From: a virus | Length of the DNA stretch: 64,000 nt | Reading direction: 5' to 3' (one strand) | IMG/VR virus record: IMGVR_UViG_3300020048_000014 | Coordinates: 32,001-96,000 of that record | In this document: positions 3,414 to 38,760 of the stretch, piece by piece | Position numbering within the stretch: position 1 is the stretch's first letter | How the letters are laid out: each line of letters opens with the position of its first letter | Program-made: the position numbers and the translations under genes | Notes under the pieces: generated by a model | The model's input: the letters and a program-made list of their open reading frames with translations, nothing else | What the model was told of the DNA's origin: nothing | Databases searched by the model: none

Positions 3414-4919
3414 TTAGAAGTTTTTTGCGACACGTTCACGGATCTCACTTAGAGTCTGATCATGTGTCAAAATACCATCAAGAAAAACGGTTTTAAGTTC
3501 GCCTCCAGATTCCTCTTCTTCTGTGCATTGGTCCTTTAAAACATATTCACCATCTATTAGATCAACTCTTAGACGACCTTTGGCAGATTTTTTGAGTCCA
3601 TCGTCTGTGATGGGATCTTTATAAATATCATAACCAACACCATCAACCTGCGCCCATGTCGCTTTAATAGCCATTCCGAGGCAATCACGGGTCAATAGGT
3701 TTAAAGTATAAGACCCCACACCGAATACGATATTATTAGATGCAAATCCTTTTTCTTTAAGACGGGTTAAAATATCAAATGCTCTTTGTTGAGTGATGGA
3801 ATCCCCATAAATTAGGCCCACTCGTTGATTCAGCATCTTATAACCTTGTTCAGATACAGTTCCACCGAAAATTTCCCACAGACATTCGACAGAACCTTTA
3901 TATTCATTACTACCCACGGGAGCAGTTGGATCACCACAAATAATATGAACAGGATTACCACTATCAGGTCTAAACACAACTTTAGCTAACCCAAGTTCAT
4001 TAGGTTGCCGATTTAAAATATCATCTTTAAGGATAGTTGCATACTCTGTGATAACTTTAAAATAGTCATAGGTGTCGCTCACAAGACTAACAATTCCAGT
4101 AGGGTAATGTTTTGTGATAGCATCTCTAAAGAATTCTAATTCTCCCGTCAATGCAGTTCCGAGACTACTCACACTATGTTCCGATGCTGGGACAGATGCT
4201 GCAATAAGTTCTTTATCAGCGTCGGCATTGTAATAATCTTCCAGTAGATCAATAGCTGGAATCGTATCGGTCCCCATAAAGCTTAGAAGGAATGCCGCGC
4301 CATTGATAGCAGAATCATGTCTACCACTCATACCACGAAATTCGAACCCATGTCCTTGAAAACATACCCCATCAGTATTACCAACGGTTTCCATCGCAAA
4401 CTTGTTAAACATTTTACGAAATTCAAATGCAATAGTGGCATTAGTGATAGGTTTCCAAGTTTCACAAGAAATAATAGTTTCAAGATAGTTAGTCAACCAA
4501 GCAAATTTAGGGTGAGTATTGGTGATGGTGAAATAAGGAACTTTAACATTAACCCTGCTACCTTCCGGTAACGCTTTGATACGAATTGGTAGATATCCAA
4601 GATCATGCAGTTCCTCAAATCGGGTCATATCGACGTTATCTTTACCTAGATATGCATCACAACGACGTTTAAATTTCTTAATGACAGTTTCCTTTGGAAG
4701 ATTGAAAAATCCATCATTGTAATCATTAATTAAAAAGTCTATAATGAAGTGTTGCAATCCGAAAATTACAGATTTATCGTCATAAAATTCTTTAAGAACT
4801 GGTAGGTAGCTACTATCTCTGGGTGTTTGGTTGGCATAGATATACTCCGTCAATGGGTCCATGAACCCGTGATGAGATAGTTTATATGCGTCCGTCTGTG
4901 TTAAGGGATTTGTAATCAT
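3414..4919 (-). CDS. nicotinamide phosphoribosyltransferase-like (NAMPT / candidate Namat)
   Basis: TDAYKLSH, HGFEFRG, SVPASEHSV, SLVSDTYD, VFRPDSGNP, LIYGDSIT, FGVGS, KDPITDDGLKKSAKG; likely start MITNPL. Confidence 0.9.
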   Translation of the reverse strand: MITNPLTQTDAYKLSHHGFMDPLTEYIYANQTPRDSSYLPVLKEFYDDKSVIFGLQHFIIDFLINDYNDGFFNLPKETVIKKFKRRCDAYLGKDNVDMTRFEELHDLGYLPIRIKALPEGSRVNVKVPYFTITNTHPKFAWLTNYLETIISCETWKPITNATIAFEFRKMFNKFAMETVGNTDGVCFQGHGFEFRGMSGRHDSAINGAAFLLSFMGTDTIPAIDLLEDYYNADADKELIAASVPASEHSVSSLGTALTGELEFFRDAITKHYPTGIVSLVSDTYDYFKVITEYATILKDDILNRQPNELGLAKVVFRPDSGNPVHIICGDPTAPVGSNEYKGSVECLWEIFGGTVSEQGYKMLNQRVGLIYGDSITQQRAFDILTRLKEKGFASNNIVFGVGSYTLNLLTRDCLGMAIKATWAQVDGVGYDIYKDPITDDGLKKSAKGRLRVDLIDGEYVLKDQCTEEEESGGELKTVFLDGILTHDQTLSEIRERVAKNF

Positions 4920-4969
4920 GTTATTTAATTTAATCCTCGCAAAGAGAAACCTTTTTACTAAATGATAGT

Positions 4970-5047
4970 ATGAAGGAAAGAAAATGGACACGAGAAGAAG
5001 AGCAATTTCTTATTGAAAATTATGAATATATGAAAATTATATTTTAG
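4970..5047 (+). pseudogene. 25-codon stub resembling the N-terminal HTH of a homing endonuclease
   Basis: MKERKWTREEEQFLIENYEYMKIIF*, antisense to its neighbours, preceded by TAAATG-N5-ATG. Confidence 0.45.
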
Positions 5048-5054
5048 TGTTTTA
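5036..5054 (-). promoter_or_regulatory. Promoter motif copy 6 (NAMPT-like gene)
   Basis: TAAAACACTA AAA TATAAT; no ATG at the usual +7 position. Confidence 0.65.
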
Positions 5055-5495
5055 TTATAAAATCTCTAGATTATCTTCGACGAATTTTTTCGTGTTTGTA
5101 TACAACTCTCCTTTAGATCCGATAGCAACATAGTCAGGATAAGCTACATTATCAATTGTTCCTTCCAGAGTATCAATCTCGAATGGTTCAACACCTTCTG
5201 GGATTTCTACTAGTGTGGTAGTAGTCTTTTTAATGTATTGTGAGCGATCTCTAAGTTGCAGTTCATGCACAATCTCATATGTATCTCGAAACACATCAGC
5301 TTTGATTGGATATTCCTTACCATCAGGTTGAATGATGATCAAGTCCTCGTCAGGATTGCTCACAAGAGGCTTGTCTGACCATGCAACCTTAAATTCTTCT
5401 ATGCCGTTGCACGCACGAATCGTTACGGTTGTCTTTTTGCGGACAGTTACACGTTTCCAATCACTTGGAATATCTTCAGTTGTTTTTAGTTTCAT
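5055..5495 (-). CDS. hypothetical protein with two internally repeated PGDYG-like modules
   Basis: KKTT...DLIIIQPDGKEYPIKADVFRDTYE and KKTT...PDYVAIGSKGELYTNTKKFVEDNLE. Confidence 0.6.
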   Translation of the reverse strand: MKLKTTEDIPSDWKRVTVRKKTTVTIRACNGIEEFKVAWSDKPLVSNPDEDLIIIQPDGKEYPIKADVFRDTYEIVHELQLRDRSQYIKKTTTTLVEIPEGVEPFEIDTLEGTIDNVAYPDYVAIGSKGELYTNTKKFVEDNLEIL

Positions 5496-6409
5496 AGTTT
5501 AATATCAAAGCAAGTTACTTTACTTGGTAAAAAGGATAGTTCGCCCCAATTACGCTTAGAGTTAGTAGTGTAAAAGTGATCAAAATAGTTTACCATTTTA
5601 TCAAGTCCTTCCATACAGTCATTGTGTGCAGTGAATAACATCAGCTTACCGCAATTCTTTTCTTTTAGTTTTTCACCAAGACCAATGAACGTTCCACCCA
5701 TAGAGGTAATGTCATCAGTAATCAAACATGGATGCCCTTCCAAGTCATCAGCATCAACAAAGAACTCTTTGATACTTCCATCTCGCACATCTCGAATCTT
5801 TTCGCACCGCACAAGATTAAATTGCTTGATCTTAAATGTATTGCTCAAATGCTGAACAATTTTGTTTACTCGTTTTCCAGCTCCTGCATCTGGACAAACA
5901 ATGTTAAAGTGGCGTTCACCTTCACAAGAAGTTATAACTTTCTCCACATATTCCAATTCATCAAGAACAGTAACATTATTAATCAATGCTGGAGTCACTT
6001 CGCTATGAGGGCATAGGATGATCACTTCATCAAATCCACAACCATTAATCATATCAGTAAAGACTTTGATAGTCAATGGTTCACCTTCATTACATACTCG
6101 GTCTTGACGAGCAGCAGGGAAGTATGGTAGAATCAACTTAATGTCCCTAAAGCCCATCCTGCGAGCAGCATCATTAGCGAGAATGATGTCGAATAGATCG
6201 CCAATCTTATTGTATCGTTGAGTAATAATAAGATTGGATTGTGCAGTAAACTCGCATACCGTTGTAATTTGAAAATGTGGTTCTCCGCCCTTGAAGTCAA
6301 ATTTCTTATGATCTAGTCCCACCCCATCCTTGTAGGGTGAGAAGTCTTTATCTAAATTTAAGATATAGGGAAATTCGGATTCAGCTTTCCAGTGAATGTG
6401 TTGACGCAT
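5492..6409 (-). CDS. ribose-phosphate pyrophosphokinase-like (candidate Adps)
   Basis: FKGGE, LILPYFPAARQDR, PHSEV, CPDAGA, KIRD, LITDDITSMGGTF PRTase motif. Confidence 0.9.
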   Translation of the reverse strand: MRQHIHWKAESEFPYILNLDKDFSPYKDGVGLDHKKFDFKGGEPHFQITTVCEFTAQSNLIITQRYNKIGDLFDIILANDAARRMGFRDIKLILPYFPAARQDRVCNEGEPLTIKVFTDMINGCGFDEVIILCPHSEVTPALINNVTVLDELEYVEKVITSCEGERHFNIVCPDAGAGKRVNKIVQHLSNTFKIKQFNLVRCEKIRDVRDGSIKEFFVDADDLEGHPCLITDDITSMGGTFIGLGEKLKEKNCGKLMLFTAHNDCMEGLDKMVNYFDHFYTTNSKRNWGELSFLPSKVTCFDIKL

Positions 6410-7756: not shown

Positions 7757-7981
7757 TGAAATTGATTTAAAGTTTTGCTAATACGCCAAAAGAGAATTAG
7801 ACCTTACCATTTACGGGGTGTCCTTTTACTATCCACGATGATTTTCCAAAGAATATACGAATCACAGTCAATCACGAACTCATCATATATAGTGGAACAT
7901 TTCCACTGTCTTAGGAACGCTTCGCTCTACTTATTTTAAGCGATTGCTGCTTCTAAGCCAACGCCCTTTAAATCAATTTCA
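7757..7981 (-). ncRNA. candidate ncRNA mimicking the 23S rRNA GTPase-associated centre (H43/H44)
   Basis: 16-bp perfect terminal inverted repeat enclosing GGCGTTGGCTTAGAAGCAGCAATCGC and GCGTATTAGC. Confidence 0.7.
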
Positions 7982-8553: not shown

Positions 8554-9225
8554 TTATCGTATCGTGGAATCGTGGTGATCCAGTATATTGACTGATTTGG
8601 TGGACATCACATCCTCAATGTCATCGAATGACCATATCTTACCACAGTCGATTCCAATGTCAAGTGTTTTTCCGAGTGGGAATTCTGGTAGTCTCTCAGG
8701 ATCGGATAGATGACTATGGCCGCTCAAATGAATAGTTCTTCTATTTGAGCCATTCCAAATCTTGCATGGGAAATGGTTCATAACAATCCGTTGTTTCCCA
8801 ACTTGAATTTCTACATGATTTCCAACAAATGTTAGATTAGGAATTCTTTTAAAGTTAGCGGGGTAAAGTTCGCCACAACACCCCAAACTTTTGGCAAGTT
8901 CTTCTTTATAGATGCGGTATGTATTCGACTCATGATTGCCCCAGAGTGCTCTAATGTCTTTACATTTTATACAGTGCAACCATTCTACACATTTTTCATC
9001 TGTAGCATTTAAAAACATGTCACCGAGAAAATATAAAATCGCATTCTCTGGGACAGTATCATTGATCAAATTCTGAATCTTAATCGCAGCATCTTCTGCT
9101 GAAGTATATCCACGCTGTTTCCAAATCGGAACAGCCCAAGAAGATGGATCATGGAAAATATGCCAGTCGCTACTAAAATAGAGCTTGTGTCTATCTTCGT
9201 GTTTAAATTTCTCGATTTTATACAT
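8554..9225 (-). CDS. calcineurin-like metallophosphoesterase
   Basis: SDWH, LGD, GNHE, MNHFP, GHSH, DIGID. Confidence 0.85.
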   Translation of the reverse strand: MYKIEKFKHEDRHKLYFSSDWHIFHDPSSWAVPIWKQRGYTSAEDAAIKIQNLINDTVPENAILYFLGDMFLNATDEKCVEWLHCIKCKDIRALWGNHESNTYRIYKEELAKSLGCCGELYPANFKRIPNLTFVGNHVEIQVGKQRIVMNHFPCKIWNGSNRRTIHLSGHSHLSDPERLPEFPLGKTLDIGIDCGKIWSFDDIEDVMSTKSVNILDHHDSTIR

Positions 9226-9455
9226 TATTCTTTCTTAAGAGCCTCAATAATTTCATCCATTCCTTGGATAATTTCCACAGTATCGCCATCTTCGACTACT
9301 AATCTTGGAACCGATCTCAGATTATGTTTGAAAAAAAATTCTCTGTCTTCTTCGATAGTGAAATCTTTTATATCTACCTCCAAATTTAGAGCTTTGATTT
9401 TATTTTTTAGGACCATACAAGGTCCGCATGTCTTAGATGTTGCAAGCGTCTTCAT
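9225..9455 (-). CDS. glutaredoxin/NrdH-like redoxin
   Basis: CGPC motif, RSVPRLVV; start 6 nt after promoter copy 9. Confidence 0.8.
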   Translation of the reverse strand: MKTLATSKTCGPCMVLKNKIKALNLEVDIKDFTIEEDREFFFKHNLRSVPRLVVEDGDTVEIIQGMDEIIEALKKE

Positions 9456-9461
9456 ACTCAT

Positions 9462-9480
9462 ATTATAGGTTAGTGTTTTA
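9462..9480 (-). promoter_or_regulatory. Promoter motif copy 9
   Basis: TAAAACACTA ACC TATAAT ATGAGT ATG. Confidence 0.75.
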
Positions 9481-10560
9481 TAAATTACTTTCGATACCAG
9501 TTTTGATTACTTTATCCTCCAATACTTTATTGTCCAAGATAGTAAAGGCGGCACCTTTTCTCCAATCAGGAAAATGTTGAACAATTTCCATGGCTTGATC
9601 CTTTCGGGTGAATGAATCTCCTCGCACATTATGCACTACTAGACGCACTTTGTCAAGTTGTTCTAAAGTTTTATTATAAGCATTGACAATTTTAAGCATG
9701 TCATCCTTTAGTCTTTCGGCAACTTCGAAATCTATTGCAACTTCGATGTATTTATAGAAATCCTCATACTTGGTGAATCGTTCAGTAGTCATGAATAGAT
9801 CAACAACTTGATTGATATTCTTGATACCAGTGCAAATTTTATGCAATTCACAATATTCACTGGCTTTTATCTTCTTCAAGGTTTGACCATCTGGCGAATA
9901 TAGAACAACGCCTTCCTTACCTCTCCAAGCAGCAACGTCATTGAGACATTCTTCGATGGAATCATACTCATACTTTTGAGGACGCTTAAAACCATATTGT
10001 CTACCTATTACATCCAAATAATTTTGGGGATAATATGAACAATCAGCATTTGAAACCGCACCCACTAAGATCAAATCAGGTTCATTAGATTCTCTCAATA
10101 CTATGATATTGTTGGGAGTGACCCACTCAAACAACCAAGTTACCCCAACTGCTTCAGAAAAATCTTTTTGTTCATTGAAAAAATATATATACTTCAATAG
10201 TAAAGTATCGATTTCATGACCATTAGCCATTTGACGAGCATCAGTAGTTCCACGGGTTCTACAAATCCATGAACCCTTATATCTTGATACAATCAATAAC
10301 GATCCATCCAACTTATGACGAGCATCGATCTTCCACGACTTATCCCAAGGTTGAAAATCGGGTTGTTCACTGAAATTAGTAAACTTTAAAAATCCTTGTG
10401 ATACCACAAAATTATCAGACTTACGGAGAATACAAGAACGGAATCTTGCATTTTCATCATTCCACTTACATCCGACATGATTCGGAGTGATAAGCCAGCA
10501 ATCATCTCCTGCGATAACGCAGTCTTTGAAAGTGAATTCTTCAGTCGTTGGTAGCTTCAT
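9478..10560 (-). CDS. RNA ligase, T4 Rnl1-like
   Basis: GFLKFTNF, KLDGSL (motif I), TRG, LFEWVTPNNIIV, EGVVL, KKIKASEY. Confidence 0.8.
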   Translation of the reverse strand: MKLPTTEEFTFKDCVIAGDDCWLITPNHVGCKWNDENARFRSCILRKSDNFVVSQGFLKFTNFSEQPDFQPWDKSWKIDARHKLDGSLLIVSRYKGSWICRTRGTTDARQMANGHEIDTLLLKYIYFFNEQKDFSEAVGVTWLFEWVTPNNIIVLRESNEPDLILVGAVSNADCSYYPQNYLDVIGRQYGFKRPQKYEYDSIEECLNDVAAWRGKEGVVLYSPDGQTLKKIKASEYCELHKICTGIKNINQVVDLFMTTERFTKYEDFYKYIEVAIDFEVAERLKDDMLKIVNAYNKTLEQLDKVRLVVHNVRGDSFTRKDQAMEIVQHFPDWRKGAAFTILDNKVLEDKVIKTGIESNL

Positions 10561-11242
10561 ACTCAGAATTATGGTTTAGTGTTTTATCAAGCAAAACCAC
10601 TGTCTTCTTATCAATTTCGTAATATACTTGAGTATTTTCATTCACGAAACGATCCCATGCATCTTGCAAATATTCTGGAATTTCTGGAACATCCGCATAC
10701 TCATCTTCATTAATCTCTCCCAATCTTTCCAAGTAATCCTTAATCATGATTTCTAGTTGACAACTTTTTAGTGTATGTTTTTTAGTTGAACCATATACAT
10801 AATCTGGGAGAGGATAATCATAATCCCAATTATCCCTCAAGTCATCGATGGCATAATAGAAAGTATCACCTTCGATGATAGGATCGCTGTAGTCGGCTTC
10901 TTCTACCTTTATAGCACTATCATAGATGCGCTTATCTCTAGCTTCACAATAAGCATGCATAGCCTTGGAATTACACATCTTAATCTCATCTTCAGTTAGA
11001 TACTTTTCGAGAACTTGTTTTTGGATGGATTCCATCATATATTCAGTGACTTTATCTTTATCTCCAACATTGAAACATTGCTCTGTTTCTGAATTCATGA
11101 TGAGAGATTTAAATGTCTTCCCGGTATCTAATACAGGATTGATCCAGTTATTCAAAACCTTGAGAATTTCTGCCCATCTTTCTTCTGTGAATAGTGGTTG
11201 AAAATATTCTAAAGGATAATTTGTTAGTTGTATATAATTCAT
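10541..11242 (-). CDS. hypothetical protein
   Basis: 233-aa ORF. Confidence 0.75.
   Translation of the reverse strand: MNYIQLTNYPLEYFQPLFTEERWAEILKVLNNWINPVLDTGKTFKSLIMNSETEQCFNVGDKDKVTEYMMESIQKQVLEKYLTEDEIKMCNSKAMHAYCEARDKRIYDSAIKVEEADYSDPIIEGDTFYYAIDDLRDNWDYDYPLPDYVYGSTKKHTLKSCQLEIMIKDYLERLGEINEDEYADVPEIPEYLQDAWDRFVNENTQVYYEIDKKTVVLLDKTLNHNSEYEATND
10568..10586 (-). promoter_or_regulatory. Promoter motif copy 10 (inside upstream CDS)
   Basis: TAAAACACTA AAC CATAAT TCTGAGT ATG. Confidence 0.7.
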
Positions 11243-11643
11243 AGTAGTTTTAAATTTTCTCTGATTGTTTTCTCCTGTCTTTGGAGAGTTTCTAATGGCA
11301 CGTTGTGTACATTTTTCCCATCATGTCTGTTCTCTAACACGATAAATGTTACAATGAATCCGACAGCCTTTGCTGTATCGACATACCTCTTCCAGTCTTG
11401 CTCTTTGGCATTAACATTAGCAATGATGATATCTCTATCGGTGAGTGTCAACGCATCTACAAACTTGTTCCAACAATAGCCATGAGCCTTACTCAAACCT
11501 GCTGAATACCAATTATAATTACCATCCTTGTCAGTAAAGTAATCATCGGCGCAGCATACTGCCGCATCTGGAAATAGATTACAAAATGTGGATTTTCCAG
11601 ATCCAGAGCAACCTTTTAATATCAAGAGATGACGTTGTTTCAT
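11239..11643 (-). CDS. polynucleotide kinase-like P-loop protein (AAA_33)
   Basis: GCSGSGKST, CADDYF, IANVN, HNVPLETLQRQ. Confidence 0.85.
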   Translation of the reverse strand: MKQRHLLILKGCSGSGKSTFCNLFPDAAVCCADDYFTDKDGNYNWYSAGLSKAHGYCWNKFVDALTLTDRDIIIANVNAKEQDWKRYVDTAKAVGFIVTFIVLENRHDGKNVHNVPLETLQRQEKTIRENLKLL

Positions 11644-11644
11644 A

Positions 11645-12079
11645 TTATCGAATTTCTATAGTTTTTGGCCAGCTTGCATATACAGAGTTAAATTTTCCGT
11701 TACATATTGTCAAATGAAGACCCCTATAGTAAGGACCATCAACGATTCCGACCTTCTTTTTGATTTGATCTATTTGATCAGAATATACCCGAATATAATA
11801 CATCAAAAATCCCTTGGTGTAACCACCTTCAACAATGTTTTCATCATATTCAAATTCTACAACTTTCTTATCGTTGTAGACTGCTTTATCCCAATTAATC
11901 TTCTTGTTATGGTTAGCTGAATATATGGTAACATGTGCGCCATGAAGGGGAGTGTTCATTCTGATCCAATACTTTTGACAAATAAAATGATAATAAAGTT
12001 TGATCAGATCATCAGAGACATCAAGAACCATCCTACCTTTATGGGGTTGAACGCTTATAATACCAGTCGCACGGAGCAT
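11645..12079 (-). CDS. 2H phosphoesterase family protein
   Basis: Two HxT motifs, GAHVTI and GLHLTI, about 70 aa apart; start reset to MLRATG after promoter copy 11. Confidence 0.65.
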   Translation of the reverse strand: MLRATGIISVQPHKGRMVLDVSDDLIKLYYHFICQKYWIRMNTPLHGAHVTIYSANHNKKINWDKAVYNDKKVVEFEYDENIVEGGYTKGFLMYYIRVYSDQIDQIKKKVGIVDGPYYRGLHLTICNGKFNSVYASWPKTIEIR

Positions 12080-12085
12080 ATGGTT

Positions 12086-12104
12086 ATTATATACTAGTGT
12101 TTTA
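12086..12104 (-). promoter_or_regulatory. Promoter motif copy 11
   Basis: TAAAACACTA GTA TATAAT AACCAT ATG. Confidence 0.75.
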
Positions 12105-12662
12105 TCAAGTCCAGAGATATTGTCTATTCTTAATAATCCCAATCATTGCTTCAGTGTCCTTATCCTCGATCAGTTTCTCTAACCGATGAACTTCTCTGTA
12201 TGCTTCTTCGTAAGACATACCATAGATTTCTTCTACAGATTTCATCCTATAAGATTTTACCGTTTTACCATCTTCTTCCACAATAGGATCGCAGAGATCA
12301 AGAATATCGCCACCATTGATAGATGTAGGATATGATTCGTCCAGTTCTTCTTGGAGTAAGGATCTATCAGTTTTGATGTATTCATAAATTTCTTCTAATT
12401 CTTTTCTGACTGGCTCTCTTGTTGCTCGATAAAGTTCAGAATAAGATTCATTTGTATAACGTTCACCCCAAATGGATTCAAGACCTTCTTCTTTTTCGAC
12501 AAAATGTTTTAGAATTTCAAAAAGACATAAAGGAACCAATTCAACAGAATCGCACCACGTATTAGGAATCTTCCTAATTAGCCATTTTTGACGCGGATTG
12601 AACCATGCTCTCAAGTCATACCATTTCATTTTCCACCAAAATTTATTTGTTATTGTATTCAT
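12105..12662 (-). CDS. hypothetical protein
   Basis: 185-aa ORF starting 6 nt after promoter copy 12. Confidence 0.8.
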   Translation of the reverse strand: MNTITNKFWWKMKWYDLRAWFNPRQKWLIRKIPNTWCDSVELVPLCLFEILKHFVEKEEGLESIWGERYTNESYSELYRATREPVRKELEEIYEYIKTDRSLLQEELDESYPTSINGGDILDLCDPIVEEDGKTVKSYRMKSVEEIYGMSYEEAYREVHRLEKLIEDKDTEAMIGIIKNRQYLWT

Positions 12663-12668
12663 AAAGTT

Positions 12669-12686
12669 ATTATATATTAGTGTTTA
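12669..12686 (-). promoter_or_regulatory. Promoter motif copy 12
   Basis: TAAACACTA ATA TATAAT AACTTT ATG. Confidence 0.75.
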
Positions 12687-13336
12687 ATGTATCTCTCTGA
12701 AACTGTTAGTGGTGTCAATGAAGAAAGTTCACCATCGTCAATCAAAAAAACTTCTCCATTTCTAGGAGTTTTCCATTTTTCAAATTCTTCAACAGTCCAA
12801 CCAAGGAGATACATCAGGTATAGTTTATTAAACTCCCCATGCGCTACTATGATATTATGTTCATATTTACTAGTAGATTTGAGCCACATATCAAATAGAA
12901 CTACTCTCTGATACGCATCAGCAAAACTTTCACCATTCAAGGGTCGATAAAAGAAATTAAAATGTCCCTCATTTTTTTTACCAGATTCAACAATATCTCT
13001 TAACGATCCCCAAGCTCTCTCGACCAAAAGTGGTGATTCTTTAAATTTATTAATTTTATACCCCTCAAAGGAAGATAGTCTGCCACGTATTAAATTTGCA
13101 GATTGCGTAGTCCTTTTATATGGACTATAAAACATATTACAGTGAATTGAATCAACTGATGGATATTCTTTCAAAGTATTCGGATAATCCAATAAATCCA
13201 TCAATCTATCACCTGTTTGGATGGATTGATGTATCCCATTCTGACTCAATTTAATTTCACTATCAAGTTTTCGGAAGTATTCCGATGGATCTATGTTACC
13301 CATCGATTCAAAATGTCTAACTAAATAAATTTTCAT
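12677..13336 (-). CDS. histidine phosphatase (phosphoglycerate-mutase family)
   Basis: LVRHFES, SPYKRTTQSA, LVERAWG, GESF, IIVAHG. Confidence 0.85.
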   Translation of the reverse strand: MKIYLVRHFESMGNIDPSEYFRKLDSEIKLSQNGIHQSIQTGDRLMDLLDYPNTLKEYPSVDSIHCNMFYSPYKRTTQSANLIRGRLSSFEGYKINKFKESPLLVERAWGSLRDIVESGKKNEGHFNFFYRPLNGESFADAYQRVVLFDMWLKSTSKYEHNIIVAHGEFNKLYLMYLLGWTVEEFEKWKTPRNGEVFLIDDGELSSLTPLTVSERYIKH

Positions 13337-13351
13337 TCGTATACAGTTTTT

Positions 13352-13372
13352 CGCCCCTATTCTGGTGGGGCG
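13352..13372. terminator. GC-rich hairpin
   Basis: CGCCCC-N9-GGGGCG flanked by T runs on the + strand. Confidence 0.4.
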
Positions 13373-13377
13373 TTTTA

Positions 13378-13770
13378 TTATTTTGTAATTTTAAGATTGC
13401 TAACATCGATGCCAAACTTAGCAGCAATTTCGTCAAATGTCAATACATTTTCTTTAGCAGTTAGACGATTGAAGTCTTCCTCAGAAAAATACATGCCATC
13501 AACACACCACAATTTAGATCCATCAGCACGCTCAACTGCTGGGCCATCAAGGCGATGAAGCTTGTCATCTACATACCACCCTTTAGTTCCATTAGCATAC
13601 TCAACCGCTGGGCCATCAAGACGATGAAGCTTACCGTCAACATACCACTCTCTATTGCCAGTAGCATACTCAATGGCTGGTCCATCAGTGCGATGCAAAA
13701 TCTTCATAGCTGCATCGCTATAATAAAACTTCTCTCCGTGTTTGGTAATTTTAATATATTGTTCGTTCAT
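13378..13770 (-). CDS. HRLDGPA-repeat protein, copy B
   Basis: Three HRxDGPA(I/V)E..W.VDG repeats. Confidence 0.8.
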   Translation of the reverse strand: MNEQYIKITKHGEKFYYSDAAMKILHRTDGPAIEYATGNREWYVDGKLHRLDGPAVEYANGTKGWYVDDKLHRLDGPAVERADGSKLWCVDGMYFSEEDFNRLTAKENVLTFDEIAAKFGIDVSNLKITK

Positions 13771-13772
13771 AA

Positions 13773-14165
13773 TTATTTTGTAATCTTAAGTTGCTCGACG
13801 CTGATGCCAAACTTAGCAGCAATTTGCTCCATTGTCAAGACAATCTCTTTAGCAGTTAGACGAATGAACTCTTTTTCAGAAAGATACTTGCCATCAATAT
13901 ACCATAAGTTATTCCCATCAGTATACTCAATTGCTGGGCCATCAAGTCGATGAATCTTACCATCAACCCACCACTCTTTATATCCACTACTATGCTCAAT
14001 GGCTGGGCCATCAAGACGATGAAGCTTGTCATTTACATGCCATGCTTTATACCCATCAGCAAACTCAATTGCTGGACCATCAATGCGATGAAGAATTTTC
14101 ATAGCTGCATCGCTATAGTAATACTTATTACCATATTCGTCAATTTTAATATATTGTGTTTTCAT
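13773..14165 (-). CDS. HRLDGPA-repeat protein, copy A
   Basis: Same length (130 aa) and architecture as its neighbour. Confidence 0.8.
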   Translation of the reverse strand: MKTQYIKIDEYGNKYYYSDAAMKILHRIDGPAIEFADGYKAWHVNDKLHRLDGPAIEHSSGYKEWWVDGKIHRLDGPAIEYTDGNNLWYIDGKYLSEKEFIRLTAKEIVLTMEQIAAKFGISVEQLKITK

Positions 14166-14602
14166 AGTAATGTTAGTTTATCTGTCAACCCTTCAAACAT
14201 ATTATCATAGGCTGGACCGATTGCAATAGCTGTTTTTGTCTTTACTCCATTAAATTCGGTTGCGCCATTATCTTCAACAAGATGAGACAACAATCCTTTG
14301 GCCAACGCTGCTTCATGTAGGTCTATAAGCTCTTGCTCTGACTCTACATAACATACAATCTTACGGAAGGAATGGTTAAGCCAATGATCAATTTCCTCAT
14401 AATGTTTTTCCATATCTGAATGTTTGTTGATAAAACTATACTCATGATAGTCACAGGCCCCATATTCTATGTCATGGTTCATGCGTCCACTTTTAGTTAG
14501 GAAAGCCATGCTAGCGTGTGAAGCCTGTGACATTTCTTTTCCTCGTCGCATCTTAAGGTCTTTACGAATAACTATAACTTGTTTTGTATTTTCTTTATTC
14601 AT
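14162..14602 (-). CDS. peptidyl-tRNA hydrolase, Pth2 type
   Basis: KQVIVIRKDLKMRRGKEMSQASHAS, RKIV, LVEDNGATEF, TAIAIGP. Confidence 0.85.
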   Translation of the reverse strand: MNKENTKQVIVIRKDLKMRRGKEMSQASHASMAFLTKSGRMNHDIEYGACDYHEYSFINKHSDMEKHYEEIDHWLNHSFRKIVCYVESEQELIDLHEAALAKGLLSHLVEDNGATEFNGVKTKTAIAIGPAYDNMFEGLTDKLTLL

Positions 14603-14622
14603 ATTATTATATCCGTGTTCTT

Positions 14623-14868
14623 TTATCGTTTCCATGAATAAATTGTCACCCATGCTGCAATGCACAACCAATGAAAATTAATATCTGTATTTAGATGCGG
14701 TTGGAATCCTCCTCCATTTGTTGTAAGAGTGGGTTTCCAATACCACCAATTACGACCAAATCGTGGTCTGGTTGGTGCATCAAGCTCCCATTGTTCAAAT
14801 ACCTCGTTTGTAGTTTTACCTGCAAGAGTCGTGCCAAAGAAAATATTCCGTGTAATCTCTTTTATCAT
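14623..14868 (-). CDS. hypothetical Trp-rich protein
   Basis: ORF track. Confidence 0.6.
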   Translation of the reverse strand: MIKEITRNIFFGTTLAGKTTNEVFEQWELDAPTRPRFGRNWWYWKPTLTTNGGGFQPHLNTDINFHWLCIAAWVTIYSWKR

Positions 14869-14905
14869 ATTAGTTTATATTTTACAATTAGTCTTAGTTA
14901 TAAAA

Positions 14906-16297
14906 TTAACTTTCTTCTTCCATGTCAGATTCTCCAGCATCCCTAGCTTTACATTCTGCTAAATTGAATTTCGGACTCTTAAATTTAAGAACTGGCTTAG
15001 TTTCCTTAGAATTGATTTTCAAAACAATACCTTCGTTGACGACACCCGTTTTGCAGAGTTCGCATGTTTTATCAAGATACTTTTCATGTAACTTGTGAAG
15101 AAAGTTCTCTCCAAATGAACTATCTAGGGGAATTTCAGGGAATAAATCCGTTACCTTTCCTTTGTAGTATACCGGGACATGTTTTAAACCATGATCTTCA
15201 CAGAATCCTTCAATTTCATTCCAAGAAAATTCAGTCACTTTTCCTTCTTCATTGGTGTGTGTGACTCTATAAACCCAAAATTCTGATTCGCCTTGAGTTA
15301 TCCCATAATCATAATTCTTCTGGATATTCCTATTAGGGGAGGCCCACCCTAAAATTTCTCCATATACTGAAATTCCTTTAGGGATATTACCATCCAATTC
15401 TTTAGCGTGTTTACCCCAAACGTCTTCACTATATGTCCCATCACGTTTATTTTTGATGATCGAACGACTGGAATATACAAAGAGATAATCAATCGCTGGA
15501 ATGTCAAACCCAATCATTTTTTTAAACATTGAAAATAATGACAACGATTTCTTGCACAGCAGATTAGCAAAAATTGCCGATGTTCCATGAATTTTGTTAG
15601 AGATTGTGATATTATCATTTGGATCGACGATAAAAATATTACGACCAAGTTGTTCAGTTTTCCCGTGGAAATACCACTGACCGTCAACAATTTGAGATTT
15701 GATACCCTCAGATTTAATAGCACCGTAATACCATTTGACGACAGGATAGATAGCCAATCTAATTGGTCTAGGAAGGCTACCAATGCTCTTGGATACCCAT
15801 TTAGGGATCTTGGGTTGTTTGCTATTCGGATCACCTTGAACTTTTGTATCTGGTCGGATATACTTCGTTACAAGAAGGTCATCACCAACTGTATCAAAAT
15901 TTTCCCCGACATGGAAGATATCATCCTTTAAGTCATAATATCTAATAAGTTCTGAAACTTTAAATAAAAATCCCTGAGACGGAACACCACGTAAATTAAT
16001 TGCCTTAACTCTTCGTCCTTTAGAAGAGAAGTAAGATTTTGTTACACCATCAGCATTCAACACGGGATCATTAAAAAGATTTGCCCATGACAAGAATTTG
16101 GCGGATAAACAAGACTCAATAGGGAAATACGCCAACTTATCATTTTGGGAATATACTCCTTTCCCGACAATAATACTATTTCCAAAAATTTCAACGATTT
16201 CTAATCTGTCAGCAGATGGATGAGTTTTAATTTCTGGACACTTGATTACGACTGCTGCGTAATTTGGGTCACAATTTTCACTTATGCTCAATTTCAT
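14906..16297 (-). CDS. RNA ligase, DRB0094-like, with N-terminal OB/tRNA-binding-like domain
   Basis: HPSADRL, VKAINLRGVPSQG, KIHGTS, VYGEILG, EGIVLK, LKFKSPKF. Confidence 0.8.
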   Translation of the reverse strand: MKLSISENCDPNYAAVVIKCPEIKTHPSADRLEIVEIFGNSIIVGKGVYSQNDKLAYFPIESCLSAKFLSWANLFNDPVLNADGVTKSYFSSKGRRVKAINLRGVPSQGFLFKVSELIRYYDLKDDIFHVGENFDTVGDDLLVTKYIRPDTKVQGDPNSKQPKIPKWVSKSIGSLPRPIRLAIYPVVKWYYGAIKSEGIKSQIVDGQWYFHGKTEQLGRNIFIVDPNDNITISNKIHGTSAIFANLLCKKSLSLFSMFKKMIGFDIPAIDYLFVYSSRSIIKNKRDGTYSEDVWGKHAKELDGNIPKGISVYGEILGWASPNRNIQKNYDYGITQGESEFWVYRVTHTNEEGKVTEFSWNEIEGFCEDHGLKHVPVYYKGKVTDLFPEIPLDSSFGENFLHKLHEKYLDKTCELCKTGVVNEGIVLKINSKETKPVLKFKSPKFNLAECKARDAGESDMEEES

Positions 16298-38718: not shown

Positions 38719-38760
38719 AAAAAAAGAAAAGCAAGGATTAATCCTTGCTTTTCTTTTTTT
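38719..38760. terminator. 42-bp perfect palindrome / bidirectional terminator after the sheath gene
   Basis: AAAAAAAGAAAAGCAAGGATT|AATCCTTGCTTTTCTTTTTTT. Confidence 0.75.

Follow-up and report, generated by a model that had tools for sequence, protein, structure and literature searches.

The minus-strand segment 7981-7757 of the phage DNA analysed here corresponds to a divergent member of a large family of phage RNAs for which no description was found, and whose design follows that of the uL11-binding GTPase-associated centre (GAC) of 23S rRNA. The two-part design of this family, with equivalents of helices H43 and H44, was present without annotation in more than 200 viral contigs and in several cultured phages. 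The window, i.e., the whole stretch of 64,000 nucleotides under analysis, covers bases 32001-96000 of a 196.7-kb virus record with a completeness of 96%. A T4 gp23-type capsid gene and ten tRNA genes were found in this virus, which is a T4-like freshwater phage. Unless otherwise indicated, positions are those of the window, all parts of the element lie on its minus strand, and four-digit numbers from 1049 to 1110 are those of Escherichia coli 23S rRNA.

The element is closed by the inverted repeat 7757-7772 / 7966-7981, whose two 16-nt arms are 100% complementary, as the initial annotation had reported, and lie 193 nt apart. It is the sole perfect long-range repeat of such size within the 64-kb window. 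The 5' arm (7966-7981) corresponds to the top of H42, G7966 being the equivalent of G1055, and forms 16 of 16 standard pairs with the 3' arm (7757-7772), in which C7772 is the equivalent of C1104. The segment was also said to be ORF-free and to lie directly upstream of a tRNA-Thr gene. The second statement is exact, as tRNA-Thr(UGU) (7751-7677) begins 5 nt downstream of the closing helix on the same strand. The first holds for ORFs of at least 60 aa, but two TTG-start ORFs of 53-54 aa are present on the opposite strand. Between the two arms, and in 5' to 3' order, the element contains the H43 mimic (7965-7940), a junction equivalent to 1082-1090 (7939-7929), an insert domain (7928-7791), a U-U-U-G linker leading from the insert to H44 (7790-7787), the H44 mimic (7786-7777) and a run of four A's (7776-7773).

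The H43 mimic reads as originally claimed. Its 17-nt core at 7962-7946, which includes the equivalent of A1067 (7954), is identical to E. coli 23S 1059-1075 (reference, rrlH); allowing up to 2 mismatches, this core gave 1 match against 0 expected in 100 shuffles. G7965 takes the place of G1056, and the stem is formed by 7964-7962 with 7942-7940. Within this stem the proposed compensatory changes were found at pairs 1057-1081 (A-U to G-C) and 1058-1080 (U-A to C-G), both of them changed on the two sides, while pair 1059-1079 is as in E. coli. The only departure from standard pairing in the defining helices of the window's copy is a G7959/A7945 mismatch at 1062-1076, which is common to 6 of 91 family members. 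The H44 mimic consists of two G-C pairs closing the hexaloop (G-C / G-U-A-U-U-A / G-C), and the A1095 loop is indeed kept with one change with respect to E. coli, A1096 to U (A7782 corresponds to A1095 and U7781 to 1096). Position 1096 varies freely across the family and so does 1097, while G1093, U1094, A1095 and A1098 are fixed. The window's copy also carries the tertiary signatures of the domain: G1056 accompanies a U-A pair at 1082-1086 (U7939-A7935), which is the commonest combination in the family, and the bases at 1072/(1092-1099) are C-C-G.

Membership was established with covariance model R1, based on alignment A1, which comprises 36 members and excludes the window's copy. This model finds 7764-7972 (-) with 56.3 bits and an E-value of 8e-14 as its sole match in the 64 kb. 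With the same model, 55.4 bits were obtained for the genuine E. coli domain and 75-109 bits for typical members. The window's copy shares with the family the terminal helix equivalent to 1049-1055 with 1104-1110 (16/16 pairs), H43, the tertiary signatures, the insert followed by U-U-U-G, and the H44 loop G-U-A-N-N-A, with U-U as the two variable letters.

The structure of alignment A1 is 93.5% paired and its covariation score is 0.583, against 0.142 in shuffles (none of 500 reached 0.583) and at most 0.16 in controls with slid partners. Among 108 non-identical members, the H43 pair 1058-1080 is always paired (UA 41, GC 29, AU 17), pair 1057-1081 is mostly AU (74) or CG (13), and the closing helix shows all four pair types per position and covaries out to about 1049/1110. 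Two oppositions that are non-standard in the real domain (U1060 with U/C1078, R1056 with A1103) stay as non-pairs in the family. Covariation extends to the tertiary contacts. The 1082-1086 pair switches among UA (43), CG (28) and AU (12), and position 1056 follows it, with G accompanying U-A in 35 members and A accompanying C-G in 26, G being found with C-G in only 2. Likewise, C1072 is associated with C1092-G1099 in 68 of 68 members and U1072 with U1092-A1099 in 29 of 30 (Fisher, 7e-26), the U1072 members having been picked solely for U at 1072. Both types occur inside one insert subfamily, so the C-C-G / U-U-A switch is not a single clade marker. We take the contact of 1072 with 1092-1099 to be a base triple of the real GAC domain, which is said to have been described by Conn, Gutell and Draper in 1998 and in the crystal structures of 1999.

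The initial annotation had presented the element as a functional mimic, with selection for both helices, and not a random scrap of rRNA, and had proposed to check this with, among other things, a covariance model over homologues. The homologues keep the two-part design with both helices and the closing stem, their secondary contacts and the two tertiary ones covary, and neither Rfam nor the literature provided a described family that matches. All this supports a selected structural mimic of the GAC, and not a scrap of rRNA.

At the junction between H42 and H44 the window's copy is atypical. The G-A-G-U (1087-1090) that precedes the insert in the family is absent, and six letters ending in A-A-G-U stand in its place, which amounts to two extra bases and an A instead of G1087; model R1 deletes two positions there. 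After H44, where the family has A-C-A-C-C (1101-1105), the window has A-A-A-A-C, with one extra base. The four A's (7773-7776) replacing the family A-C-A (1101-1103) are specific to this copy, as no second member with A-A-A-A after H44 was encountered among the family members found. From the letters, this A run could pair with the U run 7791-7788 before H44. Given these departures and a score of 56 bits against 75-109 in typical members, the tertiary fold of the window's copy could be weakened.

The insert had been described as about 140 nt of extra hairpins separating the two helices. In the window it measures 138 nt including its basal helix (142 nt by a wider count), but it does not simply separate H43 from H44: its place is within H44, where the equivalents of 1090 and 1091 would otherwise be adjacent. 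A basal helix of 4 bp (7928-7925 with 7794-7791) closes it; this helix covaries across the family, with two-sided changes in all 4 pairs, and its pairs in the window are standard. The centre of the insert (7924-7832) is variable, and its fold, including the hairpin 7907-7891 mentioned in that description, is a prediction only. The 3' third, instead, is a conserved and covarying module. This module, the last 37 nt (7831-7795), is common to about 30 members and comprises an A-G-U-R motif (A-G-U-A in the window, 7830-7827), a hairpin with an internal loop and a tetraloop (7822-7800) and a 5-nt linker (7799-7795). In the window the hairpin consists of a 3-bp stem, a bulged A, a C-G pair, a C/UAA internal loop, a second 3-bp stem and the tetraloop 7813-7810. 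The stem pair 18-38 of the module alignment (A2) was GC in 13 members, UA in 8, AU in 3 and CG in 1, and unpaired in 0. The U-U-U-G linker that follows the insert is near-invariant in the family. No similarity was obtained between the insert and E. coli 23S, 16S or 5S rRNA, the scores being at or below the shuffle means. Visual inspection had suggested likenesses to 16S h44/h45, to 23S around 1250 and to a tetraloop receptor, but these lacked support and were not retained.

The extent of the family was estimated in two ways. A scan of viral contigs with the 17-mer core gave more than 118 loci, all but a few of which are not rRNA; among the 119 core loci listed, 96 were followed, at a distance of 60-350 nt, by a hairpin of the H44 type and had their flanks joined by a helix. 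A second scan with a family-specific 3' motif, which is independent of H43, gave at least 119 viral loci. In the sample from the 3' motif, U1060, G1071 and G1074 are invariant, positions 1061, 1065, 1068 and 1070 vary, and A1067 is present in 65 of 74 (88%). Position 1061 is variable in rRNA too (PMC6239185). Among cultured phages, an unannotated copy lies between tRNA-Asn and tRNA-Pro of Pseudomonas phage pf16, and further unannotated copies were found in Cronobacter GAP32, Serratia BF, Pectobacterium CBB, Aeromonas 4_4572 and Paenibacillus Pd_22F and in several Erwinia and Xanthomonas jumbo phages. In the genomes of 185,579 prokaryote species the 3' motif occurred only 13 times, always in complete elements and mostly in Clostridia isolates or MAG contigs. 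One MAG contig (Candidatus Limenecus) contains two members about 860 nt apart (L223:3997-4345 and 5205-5387, +), with 80 and 94 bits, respectively. In two phage contigs (L104:1760-1818, +, and L047:4355-4413, -) a bare 59-nt domain was found which has no insert and in which the 3' strand is of the rRNA type, G-C-U-C-A-C, and the flanks are not rRNA; these copies may be the minimal or ancestral form of the family.

A search of Rfam 15 over the element matched only the tRNA, even at E-values up to 10, with no LSU, GOLLD, ROOL or tmRNA hit. No description of this RNA family was found in the literature, including a search with the 17-mer as text. In addition, no match to the locus was obtained by blastn among 50,697 phage records, and exact-motif scans for close relatives of the window's copy returned only unrelated members or a chance match.

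Compared with the GAC of E. coli 23S rRNA (1051-1108), the phage RNA has the same three-helix layout, an H43 loop region identical over 17 nt, the fixed positions of the H44 hexaloop, the U1060/U1078 and R1056/A1103 oppositions and, with covariation, the 1082-1086 pair and the 1072/(1092-1099) triple. It differs in standing alone between an ORF and a tRNA gene, without the H41/H42 and H45 flanks, and in being closed by a helix of arbitrary sequence. It also adds the 138-nt insert in H44 and the U-U-U-G linker, has A instead of U at 1101, and lacks the part of H42 that binds uL10. With nhmmer, the window's element aligns to E. coli rRNA only at 1054-1092.

Other RNAs with some of these properties are known. 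The leaders L1, L10, S8, S15 and L20 are cis-regulatory 5' UTRs of bacterial ribosomal protein operons that loosely resemble rRNA. Like them, the phage RNA is an extra-ribosomal imitation of the rRNA site of a ribosomal protein that could compete for this protein, but it is near-exact, self-closed and adjacent to a tRNA, and no ribosomal protein gene was recognised among the neighbouring ORFs with Pfam and PHROGs. We know of no leader that binds uL11. The rnaC and rnaD genes of T4 (species 1 and 2 RNAs) give small stable RNAs within the T4 tRNA cluster, and their function is not known. As in the window, these are small non-coding RNAs on the tRNA strand of a T4-type phage, presumably freed by tRNA processing. 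They were discarded as family members, since model R1 finds nothing there and their sequence contains no H43/H44 motifs. GOLLD and ROOL are also phage-associated, tRNA-adjacent and highly structured non-coding RNAs, but their size is much greater and they do not mimic rRNA. Finally, pseudo-ToxI is a phage RNA decoy that imitates a host RNA to neutralise a host protein (PMC3475682). The window's RNA is likewise a phage RNA imitating a host RNA. The model is, however, a different one: an antitoxin repeat in pseudo-ToxI, whose action is on a single toxin, and a functional centre of the ribosome in the window's RNA.

The proximity to tRNA genes is a frequent trait of the family: a tRNA lies within 100 nt in 47 of 108 elements and within 500 nt in 60 of 108, in all 60 on the same strand. 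Such an arrangement could suggest that the element acts in cis on the tRNA transcript, as a stabilising cap or a nuclease entry site, and that its likeness to rRNA is incidental or the leftover of a captured rRNA. The window's copy is tight against its tRNA on the same strand and is not immediately preceded by any promoter-like site, both of which would suit this explanation; a scan for promoters and terminators gave no convincing site either right before the element or after the tRNA. However, 48 of 108 members have no tRNA within 500 nt, and the covariation keeps GAC-specific tertiary contacts that a processing signal does not need. Moreover, Pseudomonas, Cronobacter and Aeromonas phages all carry the G-A-G-U junction and not the G-A-A-A of E. 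coli 23S rRNA, which makes repeated capture from their hosts unlikely. A cis-acting processing element is thus already disfavoured, and we give it very little credence.

The same phage carries its main tRNA cluster outside the window, where no second copy of the element was found. This cluster is headed by a tRNA with a CUA anticodon (G000:C1:193136-193210, +), an amber suppressor that ARAGORN assigns to Pyl. Its order, Met-Tyr-Asn-Pro-Lys, resembles the Tyr-Met-Asn-Pro-Lys of pf16, whose family member is the one located between Asn and Pro.

The distribution of the element among relatives of this phage is patchy. Most of the nearest ones lack it, including a syntenic relative (L216) in which the element, the tRNA and one ORF are all missing, and one complete relative has no copy anywhere. 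A complete relative of 206.6 kb has a copy of the U1072/U1092-A1099 type (L233:1406-1644, -; 62 bits), about 5.6 kb upstream of its PRPP synthetase gene. That is a different place from the one occupied in the window, and the two copies are non-orthologous. Being absent from most of the nearest relatives and located elsewhere in another, the element behaves like an accessory gene that is mobile. In contigs from four independent studies of lakes or wetlands, the element is near-identical to that of the window, the sole difference being 7810 T>G, which changes the tetraloop of the insert hairpin from U-A-A-A to U-A-A-C, the commonest version in the family. Therefore, as far as the data show, the window's copy is not decaying.

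With regard to its function, the reading that we favour as the most likely, although with no more than even odds, is that the RNA is an off-ribosome imitation of the uL11/GTPase-associated site which acts through uL11. The mimicry at the level of the fold, the membership of the family and the link to a tRNA gene are established, and the expression, processing, uL11 binding and downstream effect that we infer would be as follows. The segment 7981-7757 (-) would give a stable non-coding RNA of about 225 nt, probably co-transcribed with tRNA-Thr and cut out by the tRNA-processing enzymes, with the RNase P cut at the 5' end of the tRNA freeing the 3' end of the RNA. Its two ends are joined by the 16-bp helix, and it folds like the uL11-binding centre (top of H42, H43 and H44), tertiary contacts included, with a structured 138-nt domain set in the side of H44. 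The RNA would accumulate in the infected cell and bind the partners of the real site, host uL11 first, and the RNA-uL11 particle would perhaps bind factors or enzymes that recognise the 1067 and 1095 loops. As a result, host translation would be shielded or re-tuned during infection, one plausible route being a withdrawal of uL11 that blunts the activation of RelA and, with it, the stringent response.

The isolated rRNA domain of 58-60 nt folds on its own and binds both L11 and thiostrepton (PMC6239185; PMC2719339). On this basis, an RNA in which the fold is kept down to its triples should bind uL11 as well. A benefit for the phage is also plausible. Loss of uL11 abolishes RelA activation, and a phage that withdrew this protein could obtain the same effect. 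Several points go against an off-ribosome action, besides the atypical junction and low score of the window's copy. Ribosomes number tens of thousands and hold most of the uL11, so that any decoy has to face their competition. A1067 is not invariant in the family, as indicated by the 65 of 74 mentioned above. The element is dispensable on an evolutionary time scale, as seen from L216 and from the complete relative without any copy. Finally, no uL11 or RelA/SpoT homologue was found in the phage, nor was any conserved neighbour protein that could indicate a partner: no protein family recurs in more than 10 of 109 loci, and the phosphoesterase encoded near the window's copy recurs in 7. Imitation of the uL11 site, bait for enzymes and docking of GTPases are not exclusive of each other.

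The initial annotation had placed the element in a region rich in translation-rescue genes, and the annotation of the neighbouring ORFs agrees with this. Upstream of the element and on the same strand, the window encodes a phosphoesterase, an Rnl1-like RNA ligase, a PNK-like kinase, a histidine phosphatase, PTH2 and a second RNA ligase. The run of RNA-repair and translation-rescue genes extends over 8554-16297 (-); its kinase is a PNK-like P-loop protein, PTH2 is a peptidyl-tRNA hydrolase, and the second ligase has an OB domain. Downstream of the element, at 3414-6409 (-), genes of the NAPRTase family and PRPP-synthetase-like type lie side by side. They are an NAD-salvage pair of the kind that phages use against NAD-depleting defences. 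The upstream genes for tRNA/RNA repair and peptidyl-tRNA hydrolase count among the points in favour of the uL11 reading.

Neighbours of this counter-defence type, i.e., tRNA repair and NAD salvage, would fit the explanation that the RNA is a decoy, or a tightly binding pseudo-substrate, for weapons of the host or of competitors directed at the GAC, such as ADP-ribosyltransferases, RNases, methyltransferases or thiopeptides. By absorbing or inhibiting these enzymes or drugs, the RNA would keep intact the ribosomes engaged on phage mRNAs. A bacterial toxin of this kind is known: Tre23 ADP-ribosylates H44 at 1095-1098 and blocks the EF-G GTPase (PMC8661411). The exposed loops that they would recognise are kept in the family, A1095 being invariant and A1067 present at 88%, and anti-defence genes typically show a patchy, accessory distribution among relatives like that of the element. 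On the other side, the literature search found no anti-phage system that targets the GAC, an enzyme that acts catalytically is poorly countered by a decoy that acts stoichiometrically, and a strict uL11-binding fold with its tertiary triples is not needed just to present a loop. Taken as the principal role, bait for such weapons seems to us unlikely.

A third use of the imitated site would be as a sink or false docking place for EF-G, IF2, RF3, BipA, HflX or RelA, with or without uL11, which would be sequestered or driven to idle GTP hydrolysis. The observation that bears on this comes from two long-insert members (L100:8410-8795, -, and L028:3689-4067, -), whose inserts contain a sarcin-ricin-type hairpin. 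The one of L100 equals E. coli 23S 2654-2665 over 12 of 12 nt, and that of L028 has a GGGA tetraloop. The presence of such hairpins in 2 of 108 members, against 0.115 expected, favours docking. A single RNA with an insert of this type shows both halves of the ribosomal factor-binding site. In the same direction, Munishkin and Wool reportedly found in 1997 that EF-G binds isolated oligonucleotides of both sites. However, the affinities of factors for isolated rRNA pieces are weak, sequestered elongation factors would harm phage translation too, and neither the window's copy nor most members have a sarcin-ricin-like hairpin. In the window's element the hairpin (A-G-U-A / GNRA / G-A-A) is absent, and a search for a bulged-G (sarcin-ricin) motif starting from the A-G-U-A of its insert yielded no consistent partner strand. 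Overall, we consider factor docking to be rather improbable as the main function.

In a broader sense, phages of many lineages may produce an independent replica, made of RNA, of the uL11/GTPase-associated centre, which in some members also has a sarcin-ricin loop, as a weapon over host translation, either by a capture of uL11 that silences the RelA alarm or as bait for enzymes and factors. We put this forward as a tentative proposal towards which we incline a little less than away from it. If it is true, the family would be a class of viral RNA mimic without described precedent; to our knowledge, no earlier example exists of a virus encoding an RNA that reproduces a functioning piece of the ribosome, tertiary base triples included. 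Phages would then control host translation and the stringent response at the level of RNA too, and stretches left without annotation near the tRNAs of hundreds of phage genomes, including those of cultured jumbo and T4-like phages, would be accounted for. The question it raises is what a phage gains from a second, ribosome-free site for uL11 and factors. The family would also provide natural variants of a classic model of RNA folding and antibiotic binding, with C-C-G to U-U-A swaps, variation at 1061 and 1067, and tolerated sites of insertion.

Elsewhere in the window, at 38719-38760, there is a perfect 21-nt palindrome without spacer and with A/T-rich ends, which could serve to terminate transcription in both directions or to bind a protein.
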